From: a virus
UHGV virus genome: UHGV-0121713
Reading direction: 5' to 3' (one strand)
Length of the DNA: 20,464 bases
Positions 7,973-17,794 of the stretch are shown in pieces. Positions within the stretch are counted from its first letter, which is position 1. Every line of letters begins with the position of its first letter. The notes under the pieces are model-generated. The model was not told where the DNA came from, ran no database searches, and saw nothing but the letters and a program-made list of their open reading frames with translations. A program made the translations under genes and the position numbers.

Positions 7973-8015
7973 TTTACATCAGTAATATTATTATATACTG
8001 TAAATATAAACAGTA
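7973..8015 (+). promoter_or_regulatory. SOS-regulated promoter: -35 TTTACA (7973..7978), -10 TATACT (7994..7999), overlapping LexA box TACTGTAAATATAAACAGTA (7996..8015)
   Basis: 20-bp site matches the LexA consensus CTGT-N8-ACAG with an AT-rich centre and overlaps the -10, the classic SOS operator arrangement. It lies inside the ORF-track ORF beginning at 7955, which argues against that start. Confidence 0.7.
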
Positions 8016-8056
8016 GTTATCTATACAGTATTGTTTGCGGTGTCATAGGAGGAAAG

Positions 8057-8245
8057 ATGCAGGACTATTTTTTGGAGTCTTTGAAGCTCCAGCGCATTGA
8101 TTTTTTTCTTAAGCTTGTAGCGGCTAGTGAGTGTAGTGATGAAGAGAAGGGGCTGGCTCTGCAGTGGGTTTCTGAACTGACAGATGAACTCATGGCAAAA
8201 ATCAGAACCCACGAATACAACCGCTCAATGGATGTCATCAGCTGA
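8057..8245 (+). CDS. Small protein (62 aa), first gene of the LexA-controlled operon; possibly part of a Tum-like antirepressor module
   Basis: ATG 8057 preceded by AGGAGG; downstream of the LexA box; followed 10 bp later by the DinI-like gene. Confidence 0.45.
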   Translation: MQDYFLESLKLQRIDFFLKLVAASECSDEEKGLALQWVSELTDELMAKIRTHEYNRSMDVIS

Positions 8246-8255
8246 GGTGACTTTT

Positions 8256-8489
8256 ATGCGCATTGAAATAATGATCGATAAAGAGCAGAAGATTAGCCAG
8301 TCTACACTGGACGCCCTTGAATCCGAGCTTTACCGCAATCTGCGCCCTCTGTATCCCAAAACGGTAATCCGTATCCGTAAAGGTAGCTCTAACGGTGTGG
8401 AACTGACCGGACTGCAACCGGACGAAGAAAGAAAACAAGTGATGAAAATTATGCAGAAGGTGTGGGAAGACGACAGCTGGCTGCATTAA
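8256..8489 (+). CDS. DinI-family protein (77 aa), probably SOS-inducible; comparable to the DinI-like part of 186 Tum
   Basis: MRIEIMIDK...LDALESELYRNLRPLYP...VWEDDSWLH resembles E. coli DinI (MRIEVTIAK...) in length and in the acidic tryptophan-containing C-terminus. GAGGTGA Shine-Dalgarno upstream. Confidence 0.7.
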   Translation: MRIEIMIDKEQKISQSTLDALESELYRNLRPLYPKTVIRIRKGSSNGVELTGLQPDEERKQVMKIMQKVWEDDSWLH

Positions 8490-8933
8490 GAAATGTTGCC
8501 CCCAGGAGGATTCATTCTAATGGGGGCTAGTTTGGGCAACGAGTGAAACGAGGCGTAAGGTGGGTAATCATTTTGATAAGTGATCGCCCACTTTGTGCCA
8601 AAAGCGGACATCGCAGATATGACAATATGTTAGTCAACCGCGATTAGATCAGTCAGTTGGAGATGGGGGGAAGTTACAAAAACTTGTCGTCCGCCATCTC
8701 CGACTACGGGTATTCTTAACTGTACATGCTCTTTCAATCGATGATTTTTGAGTAAGTGACTAACCTATTGTTTTGATAGTAATTAAACGTATAAACGTGC
8801 GGAGTTAATTTGAAAGTTATGTGTCTATGTTTGACAAGCAAAATTTTAAAGATTGGTTTTATCCACAGGTAATTTATGCTATTAATAGCCTCAAGCCCTG
8901 TAATTATTTTTATTTAAATGGATAAATTTGAAA

Positions 8934-11054
8934 ATGAGTACATATCATAATGATCAGCCAATACTAGGTGGTCAAAATGACCCCGATTTATTAAACAGGC
9001 TCGATTTTGCAAATCACTTGGCAAATATTCTACTATTAAATCACAATGATGATTGCCTTACTGTATCTATAGAGGCAGAGTGGGGATATGGTAAAACGTC
9101 AGTGATAAATCTTATAAAAGGTGCTTTGAATGAAAAGGAGTTCTTACCAATAATAATAGAATATAATCCATGGCTGGCCGGTCAACCTGAATCCTTGATT
9201 CAGGATTTTTTATTACAGTTCTCTTCACAACTAAATATTAAAGACAATTCAAAAGCTGCTTTGGAAGCTTCAAAAGAATTAATTGCATACTCCAATCTCT
9301 TCAGTGTAGCAAAACTTATTCCAGGGACAGAACCTTGGGCATCTATCATAGAAAAAGTCCTCTCTAATTTTGGGAGTGCTACTAAAAAGATTGCTGAATT
9401 AAAAAAACTGGATCTTTTAGGTAGAAAAAAACAAGTAGAGAAGGCAATAAAAAAAATAAAAAATCCTATTGTGGTAATAATTGATGATATTGATCGATTG
9501 ACTCCTGCAGAAACTTTTCAAGTTTTACGATTGGTTAAAGCAGTTGCAGATTTCTCAGGAACTTCTTTTTTACTTGCATTTGATCCTAATTATTTGATTT
9601 CTGTGCTTGATAAAAATAATATCGTCAATTCTTCGGAGTATCTTAATAAAATTGTTCAACTTCGAGTCCCACTTCCTGTAATCTCAGAAAGGGGTATGAA
9701 TGAACTTGCAAATGCAGAACTGGAAAAGATAGCTAATAAATCTTTAACTGACAGATTCGAAAGTGATCAAGAAAGACTAAGCTGGATTTATCATAATTAT
9801 TTTAAAAAACTAATTAAGAATCCGAGAGAGTTAAAAAGATTTTTTAACCATTTGAGATTCGTTTTAGAGCAAATTGAAGGGCAGGTATGTTTTTCTGATC
9901 TCTTTGCTTTATCTCTGGTCGCCACTAAATCGAGTTTGGTATACGAGCATATTAAAAGCACACCAGAGGCATATATAGGGAAGAGATTCACTAATGATGG
10001 CCTTTTGATGGATAAACCTCAAGATATTGTGGATAGATTTAGTGATGAGCGAAATAAGAAACTGAGTAATTTTTCTGATCAAGAGCGTTCAGTGATGCAG
10101 GAACTCTTAGGAGATATTTTCCCACTTCTACAGTCAAGCGGGTATTCTCATTATGGGGTTTCTGATCCCGATACAGCAGGAAGGGTTTCTGCACCACAAA
10201 GGCTTCATATTGCGTTTCATTATAAAACTCCAGCAGGGTATATTTCTGATCATGATATTATCAGTTTCATTAATGGAGATGTCAAAAGAAACGAATTTCT
10301 AAGAGATGTGCTCTCGCAAAATGCAGAAGAAAGATTTTTTGAAATGATGAATAATTATTCGAGTTATTGTAAGGATAATAGTTTTGAAATATTAACGTGT
10401 ATTTATGATACTTTTCTGTTTTCTCAAGAATTGAAATCCTCATTGGAAAGAAACTATGGTTTTTTGACAAAAGATCTTTATAGAAGGATGAATTGGCTCA
10501 CTAATAAGGTAATATCTGAAAGTGATGATAAATATGGGTTAATAAAGGGGGTTGTAGGTAGGCATGAGAATGCGCCACTTGGTGCAGACGTATTATGCCA
10601 AGCTCGTAAACAGATTCAAAATGGATGGAATGACAAAATATGGGTTAGTATTGAAGAATTGGCTGAACTTGAAGGTATCTTTCAACAGGTGGCTATTAAA
10701 GTTTTAAGTGATAAAATATATTTTGATTATCATCTTGAATCTCATATATTTTTCGAATTAAAGAGAGTTTCATCTCAATTTACATCAGAGTTTATTGCTT
10801 CTGTATTATCAAGTGATGGCCTGATTAGGATGTGTGAGATTATTGGTGAAACAGGTAGTGATTCAACAAATGGCCCTTATTTTAAGTTTGATGAAATTTA
10901 CTTCGGGGAAATACTTGATGTGAATGAACTTCGAAATAAAGCGAAAAATTTAGATTTTTCAATTTATCCCACACGCATTCAAGCTGTACTTAAGAGTATT
11001 CTGGATGGACAAAAATATTATTTGAGAGATGCAACTGTTGGTGAAGATTGGTAA
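8934..11054 (+). CDS. KAP-family P-loop NTPase (PifA-like), about 706 aa; candidate abortive-infection/defence protein
   Basis: Walker A EAEWGYGKTS (about 9072..9101) and KAP-type Walker B IVVIIDDIDRL (about 9465..9500). Gene is visibly AT-rich with several A7-A8 tracts, unlike the flanking phage backbone. ORF-track start 8928 is TTG; the first ATG is 8934. Confidence 0.7.
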   Translation: MSTYHNDQPILGGQNDPDLLNRLDFANHLANILLLNHNDDCLTVSIEAEWGYGKTSVINLIKGALNEKEFLPIIIEYNPWLAGQPESLIQDFLLQFSSQLNIKDNSKAALEASKELIAYSNLFSVAKLIPGTEPWASIIEKVLSNFGSATKKIAELKKLDLLGRKKQVEKAIKKIKNPIVVIIDDIDRLTPAETFQVLRLVKAVADFSGTSFLLAFDPNYLISVLDKNNIVNSSEYLNKIVQLRVPLPVISERGMNELANAELEKIANKSLTDRFESDQERLSWIYHNYFKKLIKNPRELKRFFNHLRFVLEQIEGQVCFSDLFALSLVATKSSLVYEHIKSTPEAYIGKRFTNDGLLMDKPQDIVDRFSDERNKKLSNFSDQERSVMQELLGDIFPLLQSSGYSHYGVSDPDTAGRVSAPQRLHIAFHYKTPAGYISDHDIISFINGDVKRNEFLRDVLSQNAEERFFEMMNNYSSYCKDNSFEILTCIYDTFLFSQELKSSLERNYGFLTKDLYRRMNWLTNKVISESDDKYGLIKGVVGRHENAPLGADVLCQARKQIQNGWNDKIWVSIEELAELEGIFQQVAIKVLSDKIYFDYHLESHIFFELKRVSSQFTSEFIASVLSSDGLIRMCEIIGETGSDSTNGPYFKFDEIYFGEILDVNELRNKAKNLDFSIYPTRIQAVLKSILDGQKYYLRDATVGEDW

Positions 11055-11170
11055 TACTTTTATAGGCATGCTTAGAGATGATGGAGTATCTTTTTCTCCC
11101 TTTTGAGGAAGTGATTTCCAACTGGGCATGGATGCCACATCAAATGGACAGTTGTTGTCACCTGTCAGTT

Positions 11171-11240
11171 AGCTGCTATTTGTTTATAGCAGCTGAAAGC
11201 CCACTACATAGTTACACCAGAAGGAGTAACAATGTAGTGG
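11171..11240. repeat. Two adjacent strong inverted repeats (hairpins) in the intergenic region after the KAP gene
   Basis: IR1: agctgctat (11171..11179) / atagcagct (11186..11194), perfect 9-bp stem. IR2: ccactacatagttac (11201..11215) / gtaacaatgtagtgg (11226..11240), 14 of 15 bp paired with AAGGAG in the loop. The 10-mer CCACTACATA recurs at 11478..11487. Confidence 0.5.
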
Positions 11241-11496
11241 ATAGCTAAATTTGACCACCTTAACAGATATGTTAATTTCCCCCCTCGCTCACAGCGGACT
11301 TTCATCTTTGTAAACCCTTATAATTCGCTTTTCAGCGGTCATTCAGATACGGATTTACGCTTTCCTTGGCAGTGCATGACTATGACGCATGAGATCGCAT
11401 GATCGTTTGAGGATCGTTTTTGCTGAGGCCAGCCAGAACTGGCGTGCTTTTGCTTATGTCATGCAGGTGCATGAAAACCACTACATAAAGTGGGCA

Positions 11497-11515
11497 GGCG
11501 TGGCGGGGATACGAG
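11497..11515. other. Candidate cos (cohesive-end) remnant of the P2/186 family
   Basis: GGCGTGGCGGGGA (11497..11509) matches the first 13 nt of the 19-nt P2/186 cohesive end as I recall it (GGCG[A/T]GGCGGGGAAAGCA[C/T]); the next 6 nt diverge. It sits in a local GC-rich patch inside otherwise AT-rich cargo. Not verified by alignment. Confidence 0.3.
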
Positions 11516-11645
11516 CGCGCGCTAACTCTTGGCTTTGTTTCATAATCAAAAATGTGATCATTGAGATTATTCTTAATTTTATGTTTGTCTATGAAATATC
11601 ATTTCGCTTAACATTGTTTGAGTTAGGACTACATGAGAATAAAGA

Positions 11646-12221
11646 ATGCTTTTACCCGTAAGTGTTACATCGTGTGGCTTGTATCACCCCTACTGGCATT
11701 TGGGAGAGCGCAACCCTCATAGCGATGAACTATCAAGGCAGATGATGGATTTTAAGGATGAAAATAATCGTAATCATCAAAGGGCTATTAACCGTTTTTC
11801 TCGATTAGCTATAGATAAGGTTGGGCGGTTAGTAATCAGAGGTGGCGGTGGGCGTTTTGTTGAGTCTCCTTTTTCGATAGCAGTCGTCCCATCTCACACT
11901 GAAGGCAGAATTTCACCGGCTTTGATTGAGGTCGCCGAGCGAATCGTAAATGTTCACCGTCGGGGCATTGTTGATTGCTGTTTGGAAAGAACACGCACTG
12001 TTCCTAGCGCACATCGTGAAGGAGGAGATCGCTCAATTACTGGTCACATGTCTAGTATCAGAGTTAGGGGTGGTAACCTCATGGGGCGAAATGTGTTACT
12101 ACTAGATGATGTTAAAACAACAGGCGGTAGTTTGTCTGCGTGTTTTTATTTACTGGAGTCTGCAGGAGCTGGAGTTATAATGCCATTAGCTCTGCTAGAA
12201 ACTGCAAACTATGAGGAGTAG
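11646..12221 (+). CDS. Type I phosphoribosyltransferase (PRTase) domain protein, 191 aa; candidate defence effector (ShosT-like / ComF-like)
   Basis: PRPP-binding signature VLLLDDVKTTGGSL (hydrophobic stretch-DD-x-x-TTG). In-frame TAA two codons upstream fixes the 5' limit. Overlaps the next gene by 11 nt. Confidence 0.7.
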   Translation: MLLPVSVTSCGLYHPYWHLGERNPHSDELSRQMMDFKDENNRNHQRAINRFSRLAIDKVGRLVIRGGGGRFVESPFSIAVVPSHTEGRISPALIEVAERIVNVHRRGIVDCCLERTRTVPSAHREGGDRSITGHMSSIRVRGGNLMGRNVLLLDDVKTTGGSLSACFYLLESAGAGVIMPLALLETANYEE

Positions 12222-13185
12222 CAAAGTGCACTCAGAAGAATTAAAAAATACACTTGGATTAGCTATTCAAATCGGGAAGCTAGCATCTGATCAAAGTGTA
12301 TTGAAATTCTTTGAGCTTATTGATTTTGATGTTATTCGTGATATACGCGACTTAACTGAGATGGTTAATAGCCACGGGTTTCTAAAAGATAAAATATCTG
12401 AGACTGATTTTCTAATAGCGAATGCTGAATTGGAGAACCACCATGTTAATGGTGTGGAGCTAATACCATATGGGTCTGAATTCTATCCTCTTAGTTTAGC
12501 GTTTACTCCTAATCCACCATCAATTCTCTACATAAAAGGGGATAAAAGTATACTAAAAGAATTGCCGGGTGTCGCAATTGTAGGATCCCGTGATACTTCC
12601 CCTGCAGGGGAAGAAATAACGAGGCGAATCACTAATCAGATAGTGTCTGCTGGGTATATTGTTGTAAGTGGGTTAGCAATAGGCACTGATGCGAATGCTC
12701 ATAAGGCAACGTTACAAGCAAAAGGAAAAACCATTGCTGTCTTGGCGCATGGTCTTGAGGAGGCTAAGCCGAAGCAAAACAGTCGACTTGCTCAAGAGAT
12801 TCTGGATAAAGGTGGTGCATGGATTTCTGAGTATCCTATGGGGCGACCGGCCCAGAAACAATCATTTGTACAAAGAAATCGGATACAAGTTGGATTATCT
12901 GCAGGTTCAATTTTAATCGAGGCTGCGTTAAATAGCGGAACGATAACTCAAGCTGAGTTTGCAAATAAGGCTAAAAGACCAGTGTTTGCGGTTGTACCTC
13001 ACCTACCTAATAATCCGCTTAATCTTAATTGTGAGGGAACAGTTGATTTAGTTAAGAGCAACATGGCTAGAGCGTTAAAAACAAAACGGGATTATGATGA
13101 TGTGATTATGATCATAAATGAGTCTCGGGAGTATTTGTTAGAGCTAAAATGGCCAGGGAAACAGAGTACATTAGACTTGATTTAA
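12211..13185 (+). CDS. DprA/Smf-like (SLOG-superfamily Rossmann) protein, about 320 aa; candidate defence partner (ShosA-like)
   Basis: DprA core motifs VAIVGSRDTSPAGEE and IVVSGLAIGTDANAHKA, then TIAVLAHGLEE and RNRIQVGLS. Start is ATG 12211 or GTG 12226 (the latter has a GGAG Shine-Dalgarno at 7-nt spacing). Confidence 0.75.
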   Translation: MRSSKVHSEELKNTLGLAIQIGKLASDQSVLKFFELIDFDVIRDIRDLTEMVNSHGFLKDKISETDFLIANAELENHHVNGVELIPYGSEFYPLSLAFTPNPPSILYIKGDKSILKELPGVAIVGSRDTSPAGEEITRRITNQIVSAGYIVVSGLAIGTDANAHKATLQAKGKTIAVLAHGLEEAKPKQNSRLAQEILDKGGAWISEYPMGRPAQKQSFVQRNRIQVGLSAGSILIEAALNSGTITQAEFANKAKRPVFAVVPHLPNNPLNLNCEGTVDLVKSNMARALKTKRDYDDVIMIINESREYLLELKWPGKQSTLDLI

Positions 13186-13209
13186 AGCGCCTCTTTTAGA
13201 GGCACTTTG

Positions 13210-13866
13210 CTAAATTTGATATCTCTCGAATTTTATAATTTCTTCACCGCTCCAATGATTAAATTCTTTCATTCTTTTTTGTAATGGTAATAATTCATTT
13301 TTCACAAATACCTTACTAGCTTTTTCTACATCCCCAAATCCCCCAACATTATTAGGCATTATCCCCATCATCTGTGGCGGAACGCGATGTGCTGCCATCA
13401 TGTCATCCCGGCTCACGTTCTTGATATTTAGAAACTCATCCTTCGCCGCAACTTCTGACAAAGGGATGATCTGAAGGCCGTCCTTTTTGCCGTTAGGCGA
13501 GTACATAAACAGGTTGCGGAAGTTACCCGGACCTTTGGCACTTTTCATTGCATTGCGGAGGTTGTTCACGTCCTCCTGGTTCTGCGCAGCATCGGTCATG
13601 TACATGATGAAGCCTGCATGACTACCGTTAATGTAATACTTGCGGCGGAACAGCGTGGCGGACTCATTGAGCAGGGCGGACGGAATGGCAGAAAGATAGC
13701 TGGGCAGGCCGTAGATCTCCTGGTTAATGTCCGGTTCCATCAGATGAAAAATGCTGCCTTTCGTGAACTGATACGGCTGGGTTGTCATACCGTATTGCAC
13801 AAACCAGTAGGTATCCAGGTCTAACCCGCGTCGGGTGTATTTTGCCAGAGCAGGCTCAAGGGCGAC
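13210..13866 (-). pseudogene. Q: 3' fragment of the portal gene Q (P2 gpQ family), 5'-truncated by deletion
   Basis: Encodes about 218 aa of portal-like C-terminal sequence (...YINGSHAGFIMYMTD...LQIIPLSEVAAKDEF...). The open frame runs upstream into unrelated sequence; the N-terminal third and the adjacent terminase P are absent. Upper boundary is approximate. Confidence 0.65.
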
Positions 13867-14054
13867 AACGACAACACCGGATTGAGGAACTGAAACGTGA
13901 GAACGAGGATTTACGCCGCTGGGCTGATACACCTTTGCCTGCTGACATTATCCGGCTGCGGGAACGCCCCACACTCACCGGAGGTGCAGATTACCGTCAG
14001 TGGTTGTCCGCGAGTGACGCCGTGTCGGCTGGGACAGGCAGCGCCGCGCACTAA
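13866..14054 (+). pseudogene. lysB: 3' fragment of lysB (Rz-like inner-membrane spanin), 5'-truncated
   Basis: Coiled-coil, charged C-terminal peptide ...HRIEELKRENEDLRRWADTPLPADIIRLRERP directly upstream of R, as in P2 (lysA-lysB/lysC-R-S). No holin or endolysin upstream. Boundary approximate. Confidence 0.45.
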
Positions 14055-15088: not shown

Positions 15089-15295
15089 ATGAACGCACAA
15101 TTAACCGAAATCATGCGCCTTATCACCAACCTGATCCGCACTGGTGTAGTCACCGAAGTGGACCGGGAAAACTGGCTTTGCCGGGTGAAAACGAGCGACC
15201 TTGAAACCAACTGGATTAACTGGCTGACGCTGCGCGCGGGTAAACGCGCTGCCGCAGGACAAGCGCCTGTCTGCCATGACTATGTTGTTTGGTAA
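15089..15295 (+). pseudogene. V: 5' fragment of baseplate spike gene V (68 codons), truncated
   Basis: MNAQLTEIMRLITNLIRTGVVTEVDRENWLCRVKTSDLETNWINWLTLRAGK resembles the P2 gpV N-terminus; the frame ends after 68 codons where tape-measure-like sequence begins in another frame. Confidence 0.6.
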
Positions 15296-16082
15296 AGAGT
15301 TTGGCGATGACGCGGCGAAACTGGCAAACAACCTGCCGGAACTGCAGCGTCAGTTAAAACTGACAGCGGGCAATGATGCGCTTGGCTCCATGCAGAAAGA
15401 ATCCGACATTAACAAGGATTCACTTTCTGCGCAGTGGTTGCTGGTCAAAACCGGAGCGCAGAACACCTTCAGCAGCCTGGGCGAAACGCTGCGCCAGCCG
15501 CTGATGGATATTCTGTACACGGTGAAAAGCATCACGGGAGCGTTGCGCCGCTGGGTGGAAGCTAACCCGGAACTGACAGGCACACTGATGAAAGTATCGG
15601 CTGTTGTGGCTGCGGTTACCGTCGGCCTCGGCACCTTAGCGGTGGCGCTGGCTGCAGTGCTGGGGCCGCTGGCAGTGATCCGTCTGGGATTCTCTGTGTT
15701 GGGTATCAAAACGTTATCTTCCGTTACGGCAGCAGTAACTCGAACCAGCAGCGCGTTGTCCTGGCTGGCTGGCGCACCACTGGCACTGCTGCGACGCGGG
15801 CTTGCTTCATCGGGCAACGCCGCAGGTTTACTTACTGCGCCGTTGTCGTCTTTGCGCCGCACGGCATCACTGACGGGAAATGTCCTGAAAACTGTAGCAG
15901 GTGCGCCGGTTGCACTTTTGCGGTCTGGATTATCCGGTTTACGTGCTGTTGCTGTGATGTTTATGAATCCTCTGGCGGTACTGCGCGGTGGACTGGCCGC
16001 CGCAGGCACGGTGCTGCGAGTACTGGCATCTGGTCCACTGAATCATTGTCCGATATGTTCGGTGATCTCAGTGCGCAACTGA
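15276..16082 (+). pseudogene. T: Internal fragment of tail tape-measure gene T
   Basis: Ala/Leu/Gly-rich repetitive hydrophobic segment typical of tape-measure proteins; only about 268 codons, abutting the V fragment. W, J, I, H, G, FI, FII, E and most of T/U are absent. Confidence 0.55.
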
Positions 16083-17636: not shown

Positions 17637-17650
17637 AACAAAAAACCCAT
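17637..17650. repeat. Candidate attR core: AACAAAAAACCCAT, identical to 603..616
   Basis: Exact 14-bp direct repeat of the left boundary, located between ogr and the ybjL 3' end. Confidence 0.45.
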
Positions 17651-17682
17651 CAACCTTGAACCGAAGTAGCGGGGTTGATGGG
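17637..17682 (-). terminator. Intrinsic terminator of ybjL (minus strand)
   Basis: Stem cccatcaacc (17646..17655) / ggttgatggg (17673..17682), followed on the minus strand by a U-run (the + strand A-run at 17641..17645). Confidence 0.5.
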
Positions 17683-17794
17683 CTCCACAAAATGGGGGCA
17701 TCAAAGAAAAGCAGTGGCACTAATTAAGACTGATGCCCTGCGGAAAAGTTCTGCGGTTGTGCAAAAAAATTTCATTTTCAGGGCAACTTCAGTT

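Follow-up and report, generated by a model that had tools for sequence, protein, structure and literature searches.

PifA of the F plasmid, a soluble, effector-less KAP NTPase known for decades, excludes the phages T7 and T3 and responds to the T7 proteins gp1.2 and gp10. A gene distantly related to pifA lies at 8934–11054 of UHGV virus genome UHGV-0121713, a stretch of 20,464 nucleotides (the window) which is Escherichia coli chromosome with a P2/186-like prophage beside rcdA. The gene codes for a KAP-family NTPase of 706 amino acids (aa), and an original prediction made from the DNA alone had proposed it as a PifA-like abortive-infection gene. PifA, KAP defence proteins and the cargo of P2 hotspots are already known, and the protein, WP_000109153, has been listed before as a hotspot occupant; what sequence comparison adds here is homology to PifA over the whole length, the exact boundaries of the cassettes around a cos-like element, and a family pattern of conserved NTPase and hypervariable solenoid. 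We consider it reasonably probable that the gene product is a cytoplasmic single-polypeptide anti-phage protein of the PifA-like KAP branch, encoded by a one-gene cassette in the gpA–cos–gpQ hotspot, in which a C-terminal sensor would control an NTPase switch. As a compact, naturally mobile E. coli relative of PifA, the gene makes the questions of specificity and output testable.

The KAP NTPase domain

Translation of 8934–11054 (+) yields an uninterrupted open reading frame (ORF) of 706 codons plus stop. The mechanical ORF list puts its start two codons earlier, at TTG 8928; RefSeq uses ATG 8934 in strain BE311 (WP_000109153.1), and current curated naming models leave this probable defence gene as a generic 'KAP family P-loop NTPase fold protein'. 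Residues 25–309 match Pfam KAP_NTPase (PF07693) with 159 bits (gathering cut-off 20; E = 2.1e-46; model positions 4–288 of 293), accompanied by weaker overlapping matches to AAA_22 and AAA_16, as expected for a P-loop domain. Both nucleotide-binding motifs have the KAP-type form, AEWGYGKTS (residues 48–56) fitting xxWGxGKT/S, and VVIIDDIDRL (residues 180–189) fitting hhhhDDxDR. The original prediction had read KAP membership from these motifs and had named a profile hidden Markov model search as the check; the PF07693 match together with the motifs bears the assignment out. About 400 residues follow the Pfam domain, and no second Pfam domain was found in them. The C-terminal region without recognisable motif had been put at roughly 500 residues; its length has to be corrected, while its lack of a known domain stands.

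Many KAP members have transmembrane helices at the NTPase domain. The highest Kyte-Doolittle mean over 19 residues in the present protein is 1.48, at residue 318 in a helix containing Asp and Lys, which rules out a transmembrane insertion, and no hydrophobic insert occurs between Walker A and Walker B. Among relatives with a mean of at least 1.6, the most hydrophobic window most commonly (29 of 51) lies at this conserved charged helix near residue 318. KAP membership is not harmed by the missing helices, because PifA does not possess them either.

Homology to PifA over the whole length

The PADLOC PifA model matches residues 3–447 (E = 1e-64, 217 bits, model positions 4–456 of 720), as compared to 963 bits and model positions 2–718 for F PifA itself, and BLASTP against F PifA detects 26% identity over residues 43–360 and nothing beyond. 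Comparison of a shallow 26-sequence alignment with the single PifA sequence by hhalign aligned the KAP domain alone. Deep profiles were then compared, one built from 142 sequences (the window protein, its homologues, and full-length cluster representatives from an exhaustive search) and one from 119 sequences of the PifA family. With these, residues 1–692 align with PifA 8–740 over 672 columns (probability 100%, E = 1.3e-61). Submitted separately, the KAP domain gave E = 6e-49, and the C-terminal domain (residues 466–706) aligned with the colinear PifA residues 517–731 at E = 1.9e-14, as compared to E = 0.19 for a control with the reversed C-terminal profile. Because the deep profile-profile alignment includes the C-terminal domain, the protein is regarded as distantly related to PifA throughout its length.

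Judged from these alignments, the protein is more than a generic KAP protein, yet no PifA orthologue. A close orthologue is ruled out by the 26% identity, which refers to the NTPase domain, by the difference of 217 versus 963 bits, and by the prophage context: in place of a pifC-pifA operon or an IncF setting, the genes upstream code for gpA, a hypothetical protein and a DinI-like protein, and PifC is absent. The designation "PifA-like" thus holds in the sense of whole-length profile homology and of the PADLOC match, but not in the sense of a close orthologue on an F plasmid with its pifC.

A conserved NTPase and a fast-evolving C-terminal solenoid

At E ≤ 1e-3 a search with the family profile retrieved 16,235 cluster representatives; at E ≤ 1e-30 it retrieved 1,854. 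The weaker matches likely include KAP proteins outside the PifA-like group. Of the best 150 matches, 122 have a length of 660–800 aa; the KAP region is matched in all 122, the middle region in 100, and the C-terminal profile in 33. Conservation was counted in these 122 full-length family representatives (50% clustering). In Walker A, 120 of them retain K54, and 121 each retain G51 and G53; in Walker B, D184 is kept in 122, D185 in 120 and R188 in 121; and in the NPRELKRFFN motif, which closes the KAP domain, R298 is kept in 121 and R302 in 115. Mean pairwise identity falls from 35% in the KAP domain to 23% in the middle region and 16% at the C-terminus, so that the C-terminal domain is, by this measure, the fastest-evolving part.

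In the AlphaFold2 model of the full-length protein, the N-terminal half is poor, with a mean predicted local distance difference test score (pLDDT) of 65 and a shallow alignment, and the model is confident from about residue 435. Residues 430–706 modelled alone gave a pLDDT of 90.5 and a predicted template-modelling (TM) score of 0.87; they form a solenoid built of alpha helices, to which a small beta element is added at the terminus, and no enzyme fold was recognised in this model. Foldseek searches with the full model returned weak matches to RdrA of RADAR (E = 5e-3, TM score about 0.2), a STAND protein and ORC/Cdc6, none of them below E = 1e-3, and a sequence search against solved structures found no relative of the protein.

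A hidden enzymatic effector was considered and is ruled against by Pfam scans of ten divergent or extended family members, in which no domain besides KAP was found, and by the poor conservation of the two candidate motifs. HLESH and GSDSxNGPY are invariant in the close family, and the wider family keeps just G647 and an aromatic residue at position 649; since the motifs are not conserved family-wide, an enzymatic active site in the C-terminal domain is unsupported. It had been suggested that the C-terminal region might be a sensor or an effector domain. The alpha-solenoid and its fast divergence fit a sensor, and for the second option no enzymatic effector domain was recognised.

A mobile one-gene cassette

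In the annotated prophage of BE311, integrase, CI, CII, Fil and Dam methylase are followed by the replication endonuclease gpA and by a hypothetical and a DinI-like gene; the KAP gene comes next, ahead of a DprA-like gene, portal, terminase, and the remaining structural genes. The order gpA, hypothetical gene, DinI, KAP, cos-like element, ShosTA, portal corresponds to the gpA-gpQ hotspot arrangement, in cos-proximal position. Rousset et al. 2022 (PMC9122126) described the gpA-gpQ locus of P2-like prophages as a hotspot for anti-phage systems, and Table S5 of that study lists WP_000109153 as "KAP_NTPase" at this hotspot. Cassette boundaries were obtained by comparison with the Peduoviridae genomes Escherichia phage vB_EcoM-813R9 and Yersinia phage MLG42. 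Homology to the phage backbone ends at 8499, ten bases past the stop codon of the DinI-like gene, and resumes at 11371; the intervening cassette has a GC content of 33%, as compared to about 47–55% in the flanking backbone.

The non-coding stretch upstream of the KAP gene comprises 444 bp (8490–8933) without a credible ORF. The gene had been expected to have its own upstream region, and a non-coding stretch is indeed present, but no convincing sigma-70 promoter was found within these 444 bp; the best candidate is TTAATA-17-TATTTT (8882–8910). Rfam searches revealed no RNA element near the gene. The best promoter-like match of the region, TTGACA-17-GATAAT (11 of 12 positions), lies antisense inside the KAP ORF at 10257–10285 (-); it is probably a chance match in a gene of 33% GC, with 20 such sites found versus 16.6 expected.

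Full-length homologues of about 707 aa with 68–89% identity occur in Yersinia, Klebsiella, Enterobacter, Salmonella, Serratia, Vibrio, Shewanella, Aeromonas and other genera. A paralogous E. coli/Salmonella allele of 74% identity (P0045, with 145 member sequences) resides between gpD and ogr of another P2-like prophage, adjoining a hok-like gene (8001–10103 in loci L003–L006); the same gene family has therefore been captured at two distinct P2-like cargo sites. The Serratia allele occupies the gpA-gpQ hotspot, directly against the portal gene, and those of Vibrio, Enterobacter and Shewanella stand alone in small islets flanked by core genes or lie beside ParAB/RelE. Similarity between contexts at the nucleotide level extends beyond the ORF by no more than about 90 bp upstream and about 240 bp downstream. 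Since homologues occur alone in other P2 loci, in islets and in a plasmid-like context, the gene is considered a stand-alone unit; the earlier suggestion that it may act alone is supported by six other contexts in which no neighbour is conserved. A tblastn search with the KAP protein against 50,697 phage records gave no match, and the gene is therefore cargo of prophages unrepresented among deposited phage genomes.

Proposed function and alternative explanations

Because single-gene KAP precedents exist, we consider a defence role of the gene likely; they leave its mode of action unfixed. Single-gene KAP proteins defend Enterococcus faecalis (PMC13552941), and 'Reve', a single-gene KAP system from a P4 hotspot, defends E. 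coli (PMC13586616). Considerably less secure is the specific chain from sensor through switch to abortive infection, which is drawn by analogy. In this chain, the C-terminal solenoid would bind a protein of the infecting phage, and binding would release or stimulate the NTPase switch, probably with oligomerisation, whereupon the activated protein would halt the infection. By analogy with PifA, the default output would be abortive infection, with membrane depolarisation and nucleotide leakage mediated by a host partner; alternatively, the NTPase itself might exhaust the ATP of the cell. Exclusion by PifA is relieved when the host gene fxsA is overexpressed.

Several points weigh against this interpretation. 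Trigger, output and abortive mode are all extrapolated by analogy. The identity to PifA is low, with the PADLOC PifA model covered over 63% of its length, and the middle region (residues 311–465) aligned alone with PifA is marginal (E = 1.5e-4, probability 51%). To these are added the low-confidence N-terminal half of the structural model and the outcome of the promoter search. Moreover, no KAP system appears in the accessible parts of Table S2 (untested-or-negative entries), or among the validated P2 systems named in the text, of PMC9122126, so that WP_000109153 is catalogued there but apparently not among the tested P2-hotspot systems; the P2 hotspot also carries partition systems and toxins (PMC9122126), and not all of its cargo is defence. 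Finally, the sole KAP protein examined for its mode of action, EF_KAP, was reported to be non-abortive (PMC13552941).

The report on EF_KAP leads to an explanation in which defence proceeds without abortive infection, the NTPase directly blocking a phage process and the cell surviving; a protein or complex essential to the phage might, for example, be sequestered or remodelled. EF_KAP conferred equal protection at low and high multiplicity of infection and needed both Walker B and the C-terminal region (PMC13552941), and the absence of any detectable toxin-like or pore-like domain in the present protein and in ten divergent relatives would agree with such a mechanism. EF_KAP, however, has transmembrane helices and an unrelated C-terminal region, whereas for PifA, which is homologous over the whole length, an abortive action is described in which the membrane suffers lesions and depolarises and nucleotides leak out (PMC13001434). 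We regard this explanation as a possible but unlikely one.

Still less probable, in our estimate, is that the gene is cargo without a role in defence against phages; it might, for example, regulate a membrane or signalling complex, counteract plasmids or conjugation, or be a selfish element that costs fitness. One source (PMC13552941) remarks that the exclusion of phages may be a secondary role of PifA, and the non-defence cargo of the hotspot mentioned above points in the same direction. Some copies of the KAP gene look like pseudogenes: in strains SCU-176 (NZ_CP054345) and C21 (NZ_CP184155, NZ_CM184317) the matched span is 2120 nt versus the 2121 nt of the query, and the annotation splits the gene into two fragments. 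Within the 3-kb search region, SCU-176 carries the insertion sequence IS1 (IS1A), and strain CT29 carries IS903B, outside the ORF. The fragmented copies and the IS1 near the copy of SCU-176 are compatible with a cost or with dispensability. The position in the hotspot, the single low-GC cassette mobile across genera, and the combination of a variable C-terminal domain with a conserved NTPase argue against mere non-defence cargo, as do the matches of three PADLOC defence models (PifA, PDC-S20 and QatA), which point to genetic conflict.

The cos-like element and the neighbouring ShosTA cassette

Backbone homology resumes at 11371–11527, breaks off once more, and is regained within the portal gene at about 13271 (Table 1). 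The element between the two cassettes recurs with 93–94% identity in 77 P2-like phage records; most of these, H73 among them, show it as non-coding, and the H86 record calls a 144-nt hypothetical ORF over it. It contains GGCGTGGCGGGGA, which resembles the start of the phage 186 cohesive end, and the identification as cos depends on that resemblance. An exact P2 cos was considered as well and ruled out, as the P2-type sequence GGCGAGGCGGGGAAAGCAC is absent from the window; the element looks 186-like instead.

Table 1. Coordinates of the KAP gene, its domains and motifs, and the adjoining elements of the hotspot
Feature	Position	Strand	Evidence and remarks
KAP cargo insertion, 2.87 kb, low GC	8500..11370		Delimited by where homology to related Peduoviridae phages is lost and regained
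KAP-family NTPase gene, 706 aa, ~80.8 kDa, isoelectric point 5.4	8934..11054	+	Translation, Pfam, PADLOC PifA, RefSeq, hhalign; remote whole-length PifA homologue
KAP P-loop NTPase domain, residues 25-309	9006..9860	+	PF07693; hhalign vs PifA residues 10-329, E 6e-49
Walker A / P-loop EAEWGYGKTS, residues 47-56	9072..9101	+	Translation, family conservation
Walker B IVVIIDDIDRL, residues 179-189	9468..9500	+	Translation, family conservation
NPRELKRFFN motif, end of KAP domain, residues 296-305	9819..9848	+	Aligns with PifA TPREIHQAIN
Helical middle region, residues 311-465	9864..10328	+	Common to most of the wider family; weakly to PifA
C-terminal alpha-solenoid domain, residues 466-706, fast-evolving; presumed recognition domain	10329..11051	+	
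Conserved cos-like element with GGCGTGGCGGGGA	11371..11527		157 bp; between KAP and ShosTA cassettes
ShosTA / DprA-like + phosphoribosyltransferase (PRTase) defence pair, independent of KAP unit	11646..13185	+	PADLOC, Pfam

The second insertion (11528–13270) lies on the portal side of cos, with the cos-like element before it and the portal gene after it. It comprises the genes of the PRTase-like ShosT (11646–12221; PADLOC E = 3.6e-14) and the DprA-like ShosA (12211–13185; PADLOC E = 2.8e-70; Pfam DNA_processg_A, E = 1.4e-60), which overlap by 11 nt. The stop codon of shosA (13185) and that of the portal gene (13210) are separated by a 25-bp gap, which leaves no room for the usual Q-proximal spacer. 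As backbone homology returns between the two cassettes, the hotspot contains two independent insertions; the cos-like separator noticed at first sight between the KAP gene and the downstream pair is therefore real, with a separate insertion on either side. Their location on opposite sides of the cos-like element would place KAP and ShosTA at opposite ends of the packaged linear DNA.

A composite three-gene system of KAP and ShosTA might be suspected from their proximity, the two being about 600 bp apart on the same strand, and from the two entries found for the protein in Table S5 of PMC9122126, which pair WP_000109153 with the DprA-like WP_001324531. The insertions are separate, however, and the KAP homologues in the six other contexts lack ShosTA, while a DprA+PRTase pair from this P2 hotspot defends alone, having been validated against T7 and lambda (PMC9122126). 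We consider a composite system very improbable.

State and distribution of the prophage

The KAP region is 100% identical in the chromosome of E. coli BE311 and in three other complete genomes; of 5,426 complete E. coli genomes, 18 carry it with an identity of at least 99.6%. At the right end the prophage adjoins the RybB small RNA gene at 17637–17715 (-) (Rfam RF00110, 97.7 bits), which is followed by ybjL; together with rcdA this indicates that the prophage occupies the rcdA-rybB interval.

In comparison with BE311, three blocks are missing from the prophage of the window, and the rest is 99.9–100% identical. The first block, of about 6.9 kb, extends from inside the portal gene Q to lysB (junction 13864–13869), the second, of about 8.7 kb, from gpV into the tape-measure gene (junction 15239–15243), and the third, of about 1.3 kb, up to gpD (junction 16039–16040); each junction has an overlap of 2–6 bp. 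Capsid, terminase and most tail genes are gone, and integrase, CI, replication genes and both defence cassettes remain. The first deletion junction was found in no complete E. coli genome in RefSeq. The loss of the three blocks reflects either decay of a prophage which keeps its defence cargo or an assembly artefact. An ORF of 268 aa at 15276–16082 (+), for which Pfam gave no match, bridges the second and third junctions; it is no real gene and represents tape-measure sequence, fused or in fragment. The KAP gene adjoins a validated ShosTA system in a prophage which is apparently decaying yet keeps its cargo.

Comparison with known systems

The NTPase core of the KAP protein shares with PifA the same Walker A, the DDxDR Walker B and the PRExxxxxN motif. 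Like PifA (741 versus 706 aa), it is a single polypeptide without transmembrane segment or recognisable effector domain, with colinear middle and C-terminal domains; unlike pifA, the gene resides on a prophage rather than an IncF plasmid, and is accompanied by neither a pifC repressor gene nor a pif operon. QatA also is a KAP-type ATPase, and QatA models match the protein weakly, but the NCBIfam QatA model scores 38 bits versus a cut-off of 600 and there are no QatB, QatC or QatD neighbours, which rules out an assignment to QatA.

With EF_KAP and its metagenomic relatives, with Reve and with PDC-S20, the KAP gene has in common that a single gene codes for a KAP NTPase and, behind it, a region of unknown function, and the examples of EF_KAP, Reve and PDC-S20 are likewise found on or beside mobile elements or in defence hotspots. 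In contrast to the present protein, EF_KAP has two transmembrane helices and an unrelated tail of 322 aa. The likeness to Reve lies in its description as a single-gene KAP system. PADLOC PDC-S20 matches the KAP domain with E = 2.6e-21; the PDC-S20 models comprise 446–464 positions and match the NTPase part of the protein alone.

The STAND/Avs proteins offer a resemblance in logic only, in that a conserved NTPase switch is combined with a rapidly diversifying C-terminal domain of helical repeats; the present protein differs from them by an NTPase of the KAP family and by the absence of an N-terminal or other effector domain (nuclease, protease or TIR). We tentatively suggest, as a speculation rather than an expectation, that PifA-like KAP proteins of about 700–720 aa, mostly devoid of transmembrane helices, might constitute a very large family of effector-less bacterial pattern-recognition NTPases, in which the hypervariable C-terminal solenoid would read phage proteins, and the output would come from the NTPase, by ATP exhaustion, or from a hijacked membrane partner of the host instead of a fused toxin. 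If this were true, the prophage copy would provide a tractable entry in E. coli to the question of how PifA kills, and the family would represent an immune architecture distinct from that of STAND/Avs.

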